From a virus (lineage: Duplodnaviria; Heunggongvirae; Uroviricota; Caudoviricetes), in IMG/VR virus record IMGVR_UViG_2585427736_000018, positions 1 to 6,498 of that record: 6,498 nt of DNA; one strand, 5' to 3'. The notes under the pieces were generated by a model, which worked only from the letters and a program-made list of their open reading frames with translations, searched no databases and had not been told where the DNA came from. Of this stretch, positions 1-6,070 are shown in pieces; positions within the stretch are counted from its first letter, which is position 1; every line of letters begins with the position of its first letter. The translations under genes were made by a program, and so were the position numbers.

Positions 1-576
1 TTGCATTTGCCAGAGCTTGACGATGTTGCTTGGATGAAGGGTGTATTGATGCTAAATGTAAGGTTTGATTCAGAAAAGGCTTTAGAGGCCATTCTGTACG
101 TCGCCTCTAAAGCACCGATCCCAGATATCTATCATGTCGGAAAAATTCTTTATTATGCTGACAGGTTTCACCTTGAAAGTTTTGGACGCCTCATAACGGG
201 CGATCACTATAACGCTATGAAGGATGGGCCTGTAGCAAGCAACACATACGATATTATAAAAATTGCTCGTGGAGATGGACGTTACATTCCTAATGGTTGT
301 GATGTCGATTCTGTGCGAAAAGCATTTTCTGTATCAGGTATGACGATTGTGCCGAGCCGTGAAGCTGATGAAGACTTTTTTAGTGACTCAGATTTAGAGT
401 GTATTGATAAGTCTATCGCGATGCTTGGAAACATGTCCTTTGAAGCTATCAGAACCATGAGCCATGACGCGGCATGGGAACAGGCAGATCACAATGGTGA
501 GATGTCTTTGGAATCGATAGTTGCACAGCTAAAAAATAGCAAATTAATACTGGATTATCTGAAGAACGGATATTGA
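1..576 (+). CDS. Panacea/DUF4065-domain protein (PanA/SocA/GepA-like putative antitoxin); 5' end may lie upstream of the window
   Basis: Frame 1 is open from base 1 (first codon TTG, first in-window ATG at 34) to stop TGA 574-576. The segment HVGKILYYADRFHLESFGRLITGDHYNAMKDGPVASNTYDII matches the Panacea core pattern as I recall it (K-h-LYYA...G...Y.A...GPV...Y). The C-terminal LECIDKSIAMLGNMSFEAIRTMSHDAAWEQA resembles the family's conserved C-terminal helix. Recognition is from memory, not a search. Confidence 0.6.
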   Translation: MHLPELDDVAWMKGVLMLNVRFDSEKALEAILYVASKAPIPDIYHVGKILYYADRFHLESFGRLITGDHYNAMKDGPVASNTYDIIKIARGDGRYIPNGCDVDSVRKAFSVSGMTIVPSREADEDFFSDSDLECIDKSIAMLGNMSFEAIRTMSHDAAWEQADHNGEMSLESIVAQLKNSKLILDYLKNGY

Positions 577-581
577 TACTT

Positions 582-1043
582 ATGCTGGGTGATTGTTTCC
601 CTCCTGATTTTAAGGCTAATTTTAGTCGTGAAAGAGGTATATCACCCGGTGATGTATTGTATCTTCATTGTGATTTTACGACCCCACCTAAAGTAAAGTA
701 TATGGTGGTTGTTTGCTGTGAACCTCTTTTAGTTCTTCTAATAAATTCAGATATAAATGAATTTATTAAGAGAAACAATGATCTTATGGCTTGTCAGGTC
801 GAAATTAATAGAGAGGACCATGATTTTCTTAAATGGGACTCATTTGTTAATTGCATTGAGGCTCATGCTGCTTTCGATCTTGAAATTATTAAAGAGAAAA
901 TAGCCATCCAATATGGTGACGTGCTAAAAGGTCGCATTACAGATCATTGTATGAGACAAGTTCGATGTGCAGTTGAGATATCTAAAACTATGGTTAAACG
1001 GCATAAAAAACTGATACTCGCTGCTCTTCAACATTATGAATAA
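582..1043 (+). CDS. hypothetical protein, 153 aa; candidate toxin/effector partner of the upstream Panacea-domain gene
   Basis: ATG at 582 lies 5 nt after the upstream stop (in-frame TTG at 573 is the alternative start); stop TAA 1041-1043 sits inside the terminator hairpin. Only a weak GGA Shine-Dalgarno, so translational coupling is likely. Visibly AT-rich. No transmembrane segment or catalytic motif recognised. The toxin role is inferred only from its position beside a Panacea-domain gene. Confidence 0.5.
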   Translation: MLGDCFPPDFKANFSRERGISPGDVLYLHCDFTTPPKVKYMVVVCCEPLLVLLINSDINEFIKRNNDLMACQVEINREDHDFLKWDSFVNCIEAHAAFDLEIIKEKIAIQYGDVLKGRITDHCMRQVRCAVEISKTMVKRHKKLILAALQHYE

Positions 1044-1072
1044 ACCCATCTTTGGATGGGTTTATTCATATT
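1035..1072. terminator. bidirectional intrinsic terminator between convergent transcription units
   Basis: Perfect 16-bp inverted repeat TATGAATAAACCCATC (1035-1050) / GATGGGTTTATTCATA (1055-1070) with 4-nt loop TTTG. GC core CCCATC/GATGGG, with A-rich and T-rich flanks giving a U-rich tail in both orientations. It overlaps the stop of the 582-1043 CDS and lies 7 nt from the stop of the minus-strand 1077-1349 CDS. Confidence 0.7.
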
Positions 1073-1076
1073 CTAT

Positions 1077-1349
1077 TTAAATGAGCCTTTGTTTATGGGT
1101 TCTGACCCTTTCCCACTCAGCACGCCCTTCTTCTCGCCTTTTGTCTATGTATTCCGCAAGATCCTGAATATTGATGCAACGTTTTGCTTTTTGTGATGTG
1201 CCGATGCGATATGTTGGAACGGGCAACTTACAAGCGTTTGCTTTTGCTTCTGCCGTGGCTGGACTCATACCAAAGTACTTTTGGCTAACTGCTGAGAGTT
1301 CAATGTTTGGGGTATTGAATTCAGCCATCAGTAAAAACAAGGTGTTCAT
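1077..1349 (-). CDS. PrtN-family (pyocin-activator-like) small DNA-binding protein; possible excisionase/recombination directionality factor or regulator
   Basis: ATG at 1349-1347 is preceded by GGAG at 6-nt spacing; the ORF track's upstream start at 1376 is a GTG without a better RBS. The N-terminus MNTLFLLMAEF...YIDKRREE resembles PrtN-family proteins found next to integration modules in prophages (recalled similarity). Stop TAA at 1079-1077. Confidence 0.55.
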   Translation of the reverse strand: MNTLFLLMAEFNTPNIELSAVSQKYFGMSPATAEAKANACKLPVPTYRIGTSQKAKRCINIQDLAEYIDKRREEGRAEWERVRTHKQRLI

Positions 1350-4046: not shown

Positions 4047-4591
4047 TGGTTGCCTCCTTTGCGAAGCTCTGCAGCGAAATATACAGCTGCGGAAACAATA
4101 GCTGCATGTCGGTATTCACCATCAGAAAATAAAGAATCTCCCTTAAGTGCATTGACGATACTCTGATGATTTTTTGCCAGCATCTCCACGCCCTGCGCCC
4201 GTACTTCAGCCAGAAAAGCATCGGTGGCTGGCATATTTCCTGTTGCCTTCATGGCCTCCAAAATAACCAGAACGCCATCTCGCCCAACCACCTCAGCGAT
4301 AACCTCGGTGTTGTCGCCAACAACATCGCAGAATGCCTGAACTGCCTTACGAGCCAGTTCATTCTCCGCCGCCAGCGCCGAAAACTTCTCGTGTGCCAAC
4401 TTAACAGCCGCATCAGCCTGCTTAATTGACTCAATCGCTCTCTGCTGGTCTTCGGACAGAGCCGAAATCTTGGCCTCCGCTTCAGCAAATTTACGCACCA
4501 GATATTCAGCGTTTGTTTCGTTAACTTTTAAATCTCGTGGTACACATTTCCCGCGAAGAAACCCTTCCATTTCGAAAACATTCATGCGCAT
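4043..4591 (-). CDS. hypothetical phage protein, 182 aa, Ala-rich with predicted coiled-coil N-terminal half; sits where yfdS sits in CPS-53
   Basis: ATG at 4591-4589 is preceded by GGAG at 8-nt spacing; the coding region overlaps the yfdR-like stop by 10 nt (an alternative ATG at 4585 gives an ATGA overlap). No recognised catalytic motif. Confidence 0.5.
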   Translation of the reverse strand: MRMNVFEMEGFLRGKCVPRDLKVNETNAEYLVRKFAEAEAKISALSEDQQRAIESIKQADAAVKLAHEKFSALAAENELARKAVQAFCDVVGDNTEVIAEVVGRDGVLVILEAMKATGNMPATDAFLAEVRAQGVEMLAKNHQSIVNALKGDSLFSDGEYRHAAIVSAAVYFAAELRKGGNQ

Positions 4592-5118
4592 TTGCGTAAC
4601 TCCGATAACTCGTTAAAACGTTCCATAAACATCCCATAGGCATGGCCTGGCGACAGTGGAATCACGTTGAACATCTCTGTTGCCGGGATGCCTTCCAGTA
4701 CAGGCCAGAAAGAGCCATCATCAAGCCCGAGATCGCGGCGTTCGGTTGCCAGCATGATAAGATCGGCATATTTCACGGGCGTGCTCATAACCGGGGGTAA
4801 CCCGTATTTCTCACGGATTACGGCGTCTATTTTTTCTTCCATCCGTTTATAGTCAGGAAGAAGGCGTTTCAGTGGCGCGGGGATGTCCTGACAATACGCT
4901 TCTGTTGCATCATGCATTAACGCTTCGAAAGCAAACTCCTGCGGTACCAGTTGGCTGCAAAGCACCGCATGTTGGGCGACGCTGTAGAAGTGTGAAAGAT
5001 GTCCTGCAAAGCGACAGATATTTGAAAGGGAAACCGCGATATCGTTAATCACGATGTCGTCTTTATCTATCCTGTCATAATAAAAATGCTTCCCGGAAAA
5101 AGTTTTAATAAATGACAT
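4582..5118 (-). CDS. yfdR: HD-domain phosphohydrolase, YfdR-like 5'-deoxynucleotidase
   Basis: ATG at 5118-5116 is preceded by GGAG at 7-nt spacing (the ORF track's longer form starts at a GTG at 5145). The product is 178 aa, the length I recall for E. coli YfdR. HD motifs are visible: AQHAV (His), LMHDATEAY (His-Asp) and a downstream Asp in CQDIP. Confidence 0.7.
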   Translation of the reverse strand: MSFIKTFSGKHFYYDRIDKDDIVINDIAVSLSNICRFAGHLSHFYSVAQHAVLCSQLVPQEFAFEALMHDATEAYCQDIPAPLKRLLPDYKRMEEKIDAVIREKYGLPPVMSTPVKYADLIMLATERRDLGLDDGSFWPVLEGIPATEMFNVIPLSPGHAYGMFMERFNELSELRKCA

Positions 5119-5211
5119 TTTGTTCTCCACGTATATGCGCTGCACCGCGCTGAATTCTGGTAAAAGGAAGCCCTCACCATCCGGTGATTATTGAGTTAAT
5201 TACGTTTCCAT

Positions 5212-5233
5212 AAATGCCCCCGCAGGGGCATTT
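5212..5233 (-). other. intergenic stem-loop between yfdQ-like and yfdR-like genes (possible attenuator or mRNA-stabilising hairpin)
   Basis: Perfect 9-bp inverted repeat AAATGCCCC (5212-5220) / GGGGCATTT (5225-5233) with loop CGCA, 12 nt downstream of the yfdQ-like stop on the minus strand. No clean U-tract follows in either orientation, so it is not called a terminator. Confidence 0.45.
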
Positions 5234-5245
5234 GCAGTAATGAAA

Positions 5246-6070
5246 TCAGGCGGTGAAAGTACCAATAAAGGTTTCGACTTTGCTGTCTTTGAATTTCTCA
5301 ACAAGCAGATCACGAAATTCGTTAGCCATTTCTTCCTGCACCGCTTCCAGCTGAATAATGCGCAGAACCAGTACAGGACGATCGCCAGTGATAATGCTGA
5401 GGCGTAATTTAAATGGACGTTCTTTCAGACCTTCAAACGGAACGCATTTAAATTCAAATGCCACTGGCATAATATCTTTGGTCTTCGCTTCGACAGACTC
5501 CATCAGGGAGCGTTTGCCGCTGAAGTCATTATCTTCAAAATCAGCGGTCTGGTTTGCTTCAATCGTGATTTTACGGACCGCCGCAGCCGCTTTTGTTGCC
5601 TGAATGGTGTCACCATTAGCATCAAAGCCCACAAGGTAGTCGGCCCAGTCTTCAATCCATTCTGCCAGTGATTTCTGGGAGTTACGCTCGCCATTAACAG
5701 ACAACAGAGCAGAGAACGGTGCTGTCTTTTTCAGTTTGAGAGTGGCGGTGTTATCTGCGTGACCTGGTTCATCAATAGTACCCAGGTTAAGCACACTGAC
5801 GGCACGCATATTATCAGCATCGATAAAGCAGCGGGTGCCTTCATCTGCAAGATCTTTAGAATAACGGGTAAAGTCATCGATGCTGGCAGTGGAAAGCGCA
5901 CCACGGAAACGGAAGCGATTTAAATTAAATTTTTCCAGATCATGAATGCGGAAATTCTCAGGCAATGCCACAGCATCGGCACCAATCTTACTGATAATTT
6001 CATTAACACCCTGAGCAGAAATAAGGGCATGGATTTGATTAATTGCGGTTGCGTCTAAGTTCTGAGACAT
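5246..6070 (-). CDS. yfdQ: DUF2303-family phage protein, YfdQ-like
   Basis: ATG at 6070-6068 is preceded by GAGGA at 6-nt spacing. The product is 274 aa, the length I recall for E. coli CPS-53 YfdQ, and it sits immediately upstream of the yfdR-like gene as in CPS-53. Confidence 0.65.

Follow-up and report, generated by a model that had tools for sequence, protein, structure and literature searches.

The perfect 16-bp inverted repeat described here, found between two convergent genes in a 6,498-nucleotide stretch of Caudoviricetes DNA (IMG/VR record IMGVR_UViG_2585427736_000018; the window, by which the whole of that stretch is meant), appears to be a factor-independent (intrinsic) bidirectional terminator common to two opposed transcription units, and from the sequence and its relatives we put the probability of this reading at somewhat more than three in four. 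A shared bidirectional terminator had been proposed in the initial annotation of this DNA, and the proposal is now supported by stable predicted folds, by the position of the element at convergent stop codons, by the absence of a nearby promoter, and by the hairpins of sister alleles and of a Proteus homologue. From these features we infer actual termination at the palindrome and its efficiency. The palindrome most likely belongs to a well-known class of terminators, as an ordinary member that had not been annotated before, and leaves the current understanding of termination unchanged; its value for annotation is that, among dusA-integrated E. coli prophages of a common family, it would mark the 3' ends of both the early-left operon and a cargo operon that lacked annotation.

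A Perfect Palindrome between Convergent Genes

The two arms of the repeat are complementary at all 16 positions by reading of the sequence, as had been claimed, and with the loop they make up a palindrome of 36 bp in total (Table 1). It starts where it was first placed, at 1035, and stops at 1070, 2 nt before the end originally given (1072). In 200 dinucleotide-preserving shuffles of the window, searched for perfect repeats with a loop of 3-10 nt, the longest perfect inverted repeat measured 6-12 bp (12 bp in 2 of the 200), as against the 16 bp observed. The description of a GC core with AT-rich outer arms is likewise correct, the core (CCCATC/GATGGG) having G-C pairs at four of its six positions; the outer arms (TATGAATAAA/TTTATTCATA) are not pure A/T and contain one G-C pair.

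Table 1. Components of the palindrome, flanking genes and allelic hairpins (coordinates are window positions)
Feature	Position	Strand	Sequence or form	Remarks
Left arm	1035-1050		TATGAATAAACCCATC	5' stem half in + strand RNA; its complement is the U-rich tail of - strand transcripts
Loop	1051-1054		TTTG, 4 nt	UUUG in + strand RNA, CAAA in - strand RNA
Right arm	1055-1070		GATGGGTTTATTCATA	holds the 3' half of the GC core at 1055-1060
U-rich tract for + strand transcripts	1061-1070	+	UUUAUUCAUA	within the right arm
GC core hairpin	1045-1060		CCCAUC-loop-GAUGGG	6 bp, 4 G-C pairs
Panacea/SocA-domain gene (PanA-type antitoxin), cassette gene 1	1..576	+		Pfam SocA_Panacea, E = 5e-20
153-aa gene, second in the Panacea cassette	582..1043	+		putative toxin partner
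PrtN-family, excisionase-like gene, last of the leftward early operon	1077..1349	-		Pfam PyocinActivator/PrtN; PHROGs
Allele A hairpin			AAAAAACCCGCC-TRAA-GGCGGGTTTT	mEp460 type; core -11.1 kcal/mol
Allele B hairpin			AATAACCCGTG-TATA-TACGGGTTATTTTT	phiSTEC1575-Stx2k type
Allele C hairpin				the window's own palindrome

The TAA stop codon of the 153-aa gene does lie inside the stem, at 1041-1043 in the left arm, a single nucleotide ahead of the GC core, and the convergent PrtN-like gene on the other side was confirmed by a match to Pfam PF11112 (E = 3.9e-23). The stop codon of this second gene (1077-1079) is separated from the stem by 6 nt (1071-1076) and from the GC core by 16 nt. The hairpin is situated at the end of two transcription units, coming after the final gene of the cassette and after that of the leftward operon; GC skew reverses sign at this point, and a scan of the window found no promoter-like site near the palindrome. 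The RefSeq start of the Panacea gene falls 6 nt before the window. The PrtN-family gene matched phrog_1300, annotated as 'excisionase' (E = 8.6e-40), and probably encodes an excisionase. For the 153-aa protein no match was found in Pfam, PHROGs, PADLOC, NCBIfam or PDB sequences, and we note it as a candidate uncharacterised PanT-type toxin.

Positions 1-1400 of the window were matched at an identity of at least 99% in 46 of 5,426 complete E. coli genomes, those of strains E189 and CFS3292 among them. In E. coli E189 the region forms one end of a dusA-integrated prophage. A 5' dusA fragment comes first there, followed by the Panacea gene and the hypothetical 153-aa gene; next, in convergent orientation, come the PrtN-family gene, a gene for a 3'-5' exonuclease and other early-left genes, as far as an XRE-type repressor. 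A relative in its circular phage form has int further downstream in the direction of the PrtN-family gene, past the cargo and attP. The host element is a lambdoid E. coli prophage with the cassette at its dusA-proximal end, and the gene order together with the placement of int indicates that the hairpin marks the ends of the leftward operon and of the opposed cargo operon.

Two families of DNA element that might be suspected at such a place were considered and rejected. Integron attC sites are imperfect palindromes, about 57 bp long or longer, whose ends carry an inverse core (RYYYAAC) and a core (GTTRRRY). The present element measures 36 bp, its right arm reads GTTTATT instead of GTTRRRY, and its left arm is without RYYYAAC. 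As for a phage att site, about 1.1 kb separates the palindrome from the ends of the dusA fragment and of the conserved att-proximal sequence.

RNA Folding and Anatomy of the Probable Terminator

A stable hairpin was borne out by folding, the 36-mer RNA having a predicted energy of -22.2 kcal/mol for the + strand and -21.3 kcal/mol for the - strand, with a z-score of about -8 and none of 200 shuffles equally stable. The hairpin was retained within the minimum-energy fold of its 81-nt context on both strands. Taken by itself, the 6-bp GC core folds at -8.5 (+) and -7.6 (-) kcal/mol, and a 9-bp form in which the core is lengthened by AAA/UUU (1042-1063) has energies of -12.7 and -13.3 kcal/mol and leaves the U-rich tail unpaired.

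The initial annotation also had the stem followed by a U-rich run in both transcript orientations, and how much of this stands depends on which stem is meant. With the full 16-bp stem the claim holds for the + strand, where the U-rich UUCUAUUUAA follows, and fails for the - strand, where the following AUGUUGAAGA is not U-rich; with the GC core as the stem, it holds in both orientations, the symmetry of the element supplying the tail UUUAUUCAUA on either strand. The U tract 3' of the core has 5 U in its first 8 positions and is present in weak form since it is interrupted (UUUAUUCAU). A consensus scan of the window ranked the site, in which the full stem is followed by TTCTATTTAA, as the top terminator-like one on the + strand; on the - strand, where AUGUUGAAGA trails the full stem, the same scan did not call this site. 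Direct reading of the - strand finds the core stem (six pairs, four of them G-C) followed by TTTATTCA (5 T in 8), which satisfies the criteria of the scan, and because the repeat is perfect, the core and its proximal U-tract are identical in the two directions.

In bidirectional terminators, the A/T-rich flanks pair with each other and the reverse complement terminates as well (PMC1852404). The palindrome has this form, being perfect, with an A-rich 5' flank complementary to its U-rich 3' flank and with both strands able to fold. It resembles known bidirectional Rho-independent terminators in its GC-containing stem-loop, its complementary A-rich and T-rich flanks and its location between convergent stop codons, and differs from them in the impure A/T arms, the 6-bp core, the interrupted U-tract and the stop codon within the stem. 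The shortness of the GC core counts against strong termination, and since the U-tract is interrupted, the strength of the site may be moderate. An Rfam search of positions 800-1400 at permissive thresholds gave no significant family; the best hit reached 24 bits where the gathering score is 60, and no E-value was below 0.28.

These same features could be taken to suggest that the palindrome is mainly a pause or collision site, at which the hairpin pauses polymerases and head-on collision, together with trailing polymerases, ends transcription. Such a model has been put forward for the ynaJ-uspE terminator of E. coli, where unidirectional termination is poor (bioRxiv 10.1101/2022.10.23.513370), and the window's hairpin is like that class in lying within the overlap of convergent transcripts. 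The location between convergent genes fits the collision model, as does the combination of a short core with an interrupted U-tract, owing to which intrinsic termination may be weak. However, members of the ynaJ-uspE class are described as unlike intrinsic terminators, whereas the present element has the intrinsic form of a hairpin with a U-rich tail, and sister allele A, described below, is a strong canonical terminator. In addition, the leftward operon should be repressed in a lysogen, so that the two units would rarely be active together there. On balance we consider a site acting chiefly through collision unlikely, although collision or pausing could add to intrinsic termination.

Sister Alleles Keep the Hairpin and Not Its Sequence

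Phage records align to the window only from 1077-1099 onward. We compared IMG/VR loci on about 120 contigs carrying the same PrtN-family gene (protein 95-100% identical). Only three types of junction were found after the PrtN-family stop codon, and in each of them a hairpin begins 3-17 nt past the stop (alleles A, B and C; Table 1). Allele A, in the form AAAAAACCCGCC-TAAA-GGCGGGTTTT, is a textbook two-way terminator. Allele B, like the window's own allele C, has a stop codon within the stem, in this case the TAA of a gene for a 182-aa protein. The hairpins of all three alleles share AA(A)CCC...GGGTT(T), and the stem pairing extends over about 10-12 bp in alleles A and B as against 16 bp in allele C.

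When alleles B and C were aligned, 88% of the cells were standard pairs, compared with 28-46% in control registers slid by 1-3 columns, and five pairs had changed on both sides, an example being the fourth core pair (A-U to G-C); this covariation comes from only seven distinct sequences in two allele groups, and a palindromic protein site would also change symmetrically. A search of one genome per species for the 153-aa protein recovered a single distant relative, in Proteus sp. FME41, where the homologue (locus L083, 2495-2959; 56% identity) lies beside its own Panacea gene in another neighbourhood. The Proteus cassette has an unrelated canonical terminator, AGCCTC-TTTCG-AGGCT-TTTTTTATT, 20 nt past the stop codon. 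The shape and position of the hairpin are thus kept and its sequence is not, a pattern that suits an intrinsic terminator acting in both directions better than it does an operator; a terminator-shaped hairpin of unconserved sequence is the strongest argument available for function at the RNA level.

The comparison bears directly on the alternative raised in the initial annotation, that the palindrome is an operator for a dimeric protein, for example the PrtN-family protein or the PanA antitoxin. The perfect two-fold symmetry with 16-nt half-sites is what such an operator might look like, and the neighbouring PrtN-family protein is of a DNA-binding type. Yet this protein is 95-100% identical across the alleles and the palindrome sequence differs among them, the Proteus homologue has an unrelated terminator instead, and the non-Watson-Crick pairs in the shared 12-bp stem are G-U wobbles, fitting RNA pairing. 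There is also nothing for an operator to regulate, as the palindrome is placed between two gene ends with no promoter-like site within reach. A search of the 15.4-kb locus outside the hairpin found no close copy of the half-site, and none upstream of the cassette, where its promoter would lie; the scattered matches in that locus had 2-3 mismatches and fell mostly in host genes. The operator reading is accordingly disfavoured, and we hold it to be extremely improbable.

The alleles also bear on whether the palindrome has a selected function at all, or is a scar of module exchange, or a quasi-palindrome perfected by template switching during replication. Termination would not need so perfect a repeat, and a mosaic boundary (1088-1099) is close by, two points that would suit a scar. 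Against this, a terminator-form hairpin occurs in every allele and in the distant Proteus cassette, which would be unexpected for a scar, and we judge an element without selected function to be very unlikely. Its perfection may still have come from template switching, with the element itself under selection.

Polymorphism within allele C was examined in 33 loci (some contigs represented twice) comprising 11 haplotypes. The hairpin held two variable sites, 1049 T>C and 1067 C>T, where about 2.8 would be expected, an uninformative difference. In the RNA of one strand each of these changes produces a G-U wobble, and in that of the opposite strand an A-C mismatch. Across the 12 pairs common to the B and C stems, four positions have G-U wobbles in the PrtN-sense RNA; a fifth wobble, due to 1067 C>T at one of the outer pairs in the stem of allele C, is in the cassette-sense RNA. 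This tally of 4 to 1, which is not significant, hints that selection may be stronger on termination of the leftward operon.

The Hairpin as Part of a Variable Cargo Module

Pairwise BLAST of the A, B and C loci lost homology about 80 nt before the window (locus L001, 6915-6923) and regained it at window positions 1088-1099, within the last codons of the PrtN-family gene, which form the right boundary of the module. These boundaries define a variable module of roughly 1.17 kb, spanning window positions of about -80 to 1098 (L001 6916-8098) and holding a promoter-like site, both cassette genes, the hairpin and the last 4-7 PrtN-family codons. The promoter-like site (TTGACC-18-TAAGAT, L001 6953-6982) is located 13 nt before the PanA start, with a count of such hits not above that in shuffles. 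GC content is 0.35-0.43 across the cassette and 0.44-0.51 in the rest of the window.

As judged from these alignments, the hairpin is part of a swappable cargo module and not of the conserved phage backbone. Because the boundary falls inside the PrtN-family codons, the module supplants any earlier backbone terminator, and each module supplies its own C-terminal tail to the PrtN-family protein (RLI, KYN and GKEHH across the three types). The idea of the hairpin itself as the exact crossover point of module exchange found no support, given that BLAST homology resumes in the PrtN-family gene and not at the stem. The module resembles phage morons, described as cargo units with their own promoter and terminator (criteria in PMC2920897), in being variable and replaced among otherwise collinear prophages, in its lower GC content, and in having a predicted terminator of its own, with a weakly indicated promoter-like site upstream; it is unlike them in that the window's hairpin must serve the backbone operon too. 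The hairpin helps to delimit a hotspot that exchanges toxin-antitoxin modules.

The interval from the dusA attachment region to the PrtN-family gene is observed as a cargo hotspot with three alternative modules (alleles seen in loci L002, L024, L027, L043 and L047). Module A carries a 178-aa protein of unknown function (phrog_4350), and module C the Panacea gene and the 153-aa protein. Module B, found in relatives of Stx phages (L002 308-1352; L024 2807-3851), carries a different Panacea gene and the 182-aa protein, which has a hydrophobic C-terminal region. Kurata et al. validated a PanA-PanT membrane-toxin pair from E. coli STEC O31 (PMC8832971, Table 1), to which the allele B pair might correspond.

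Proposed Mechanism and Alternative Roles of the Stem

Under the terminator reading, the GC core CCCAUC/GAUGGG would fold once it has been transcribed by RNA polymerase, the core stem would be extended as the upstream A-rich arm pairs with the downstream U-rich arm, and the weak rU:dA hybrid over UUUAUUCAU would free the transcript. In + strand RNA, the hairpin would end the mRNA of the two-gene cassette (the PanA-type antitoxin and its 153-aa partner), and in - strand RNA it would end the early-left operon past the PrtN-family excisionase-like gene. Cassette transcription in a lysogen would be kept from antisense entry into the excisionase and exonuclease genes, and leftward phage transcription would be kept from antisense passage through the cassette and across attP towards int. 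At each mRNA 3' end the full 16-bp stem should also give some protection from 3' exonucleases. Antitermination of the leftward operon in lytic growth, if it occurs, would let polymerase pass the site.

Translation may modulate this termination. At lambda tR2 in vivo, with a stop codon 5 bp from the hairpin, termination dropped from about 0.9 to <0.1, the ribosome having blocked folding, and it recovered once translation was uncoupled (PMC4824070). With one stop codon inside the stem and the other 6 nt away, termination of closely translated transcripts may drop here as well, and by analogy, untranslated read-through RNA may be stopped more efficiently than translated transcripts. The palindrome could serve as a natural test case for the effect of an in-stem stop codon on termination, and possibly as a compact natural two-way terminator part.

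The length of the stem raises the further question of whether its chief role is to set the half-lives of the excisionase-like and cassette mRNAs, as a target of RNase III or a barrier to 3' exonucleases, with termination secondary. A perfect 16-bp stem exceeds both what termination needs and the stems of alleles A and B, it lies directly 3' of the excisionase-like gene, and the 81-nt fold of the - strand reaches past the stem (-28.7 kcal/mol), all of which would suit such a role. Sixteen base pairs is, however, short for RNase III, and at this position alleles A and B have stems of the size usual for terminators. In a related form of the idea, the stem would be a dsRNA processing site beyond its action as a terminator, a sib-like retroregulator setting the stability of both convergent mRNAs, and its activity could be gated by ribosomes halting at the in-stem stop codon. 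The hairpin is like lambda tI/sib in ending the recombination-gene part of a leftward operon. Unlike sib, which lies beyond attP and is split from int on integration, it adjoins the PrtN-family gene in the prophage and is not parted from it by integration, which sets it apart from a retroregulator of the lambda sib type. Both the primarily stability-setting role and the sib-like processing site seem to us distinctly unlikely.

Other Repeats in the Window

Three further repeats were noted in the window. A second terminator-like hairpin is present on the - strand at 5212-5233 (AAAUGCCCC-UGCG-GGGGCAUUU, followed by AUGG), in the gap between the same-direction yfdQ-like (5246-6070) and yfdR-like (4582-5145) genes; its 66-nt fold has an energy of -18.2 kcal/mol (z = -2.8), and it could act within the leftward operon as a terminator or attenuator. 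At 1403-1424, at the 3' end of the exonuclease gene and just upstream of the PrtN-family start, there is a near-perfect 22-bp palindrome (TGGCAGGAATTAATTTCTGCCA, 93% complementary). Finally, an AT-rich inverted repeat (TTCTTCTAATAAATTCA / TGAATTTATTAAGAGAA; 17 nt, 88% complementary, with an 8-nt gap) lies at 733-774 within the 153-aa gene, and is possibly a product of chance in AT-rich sequence.
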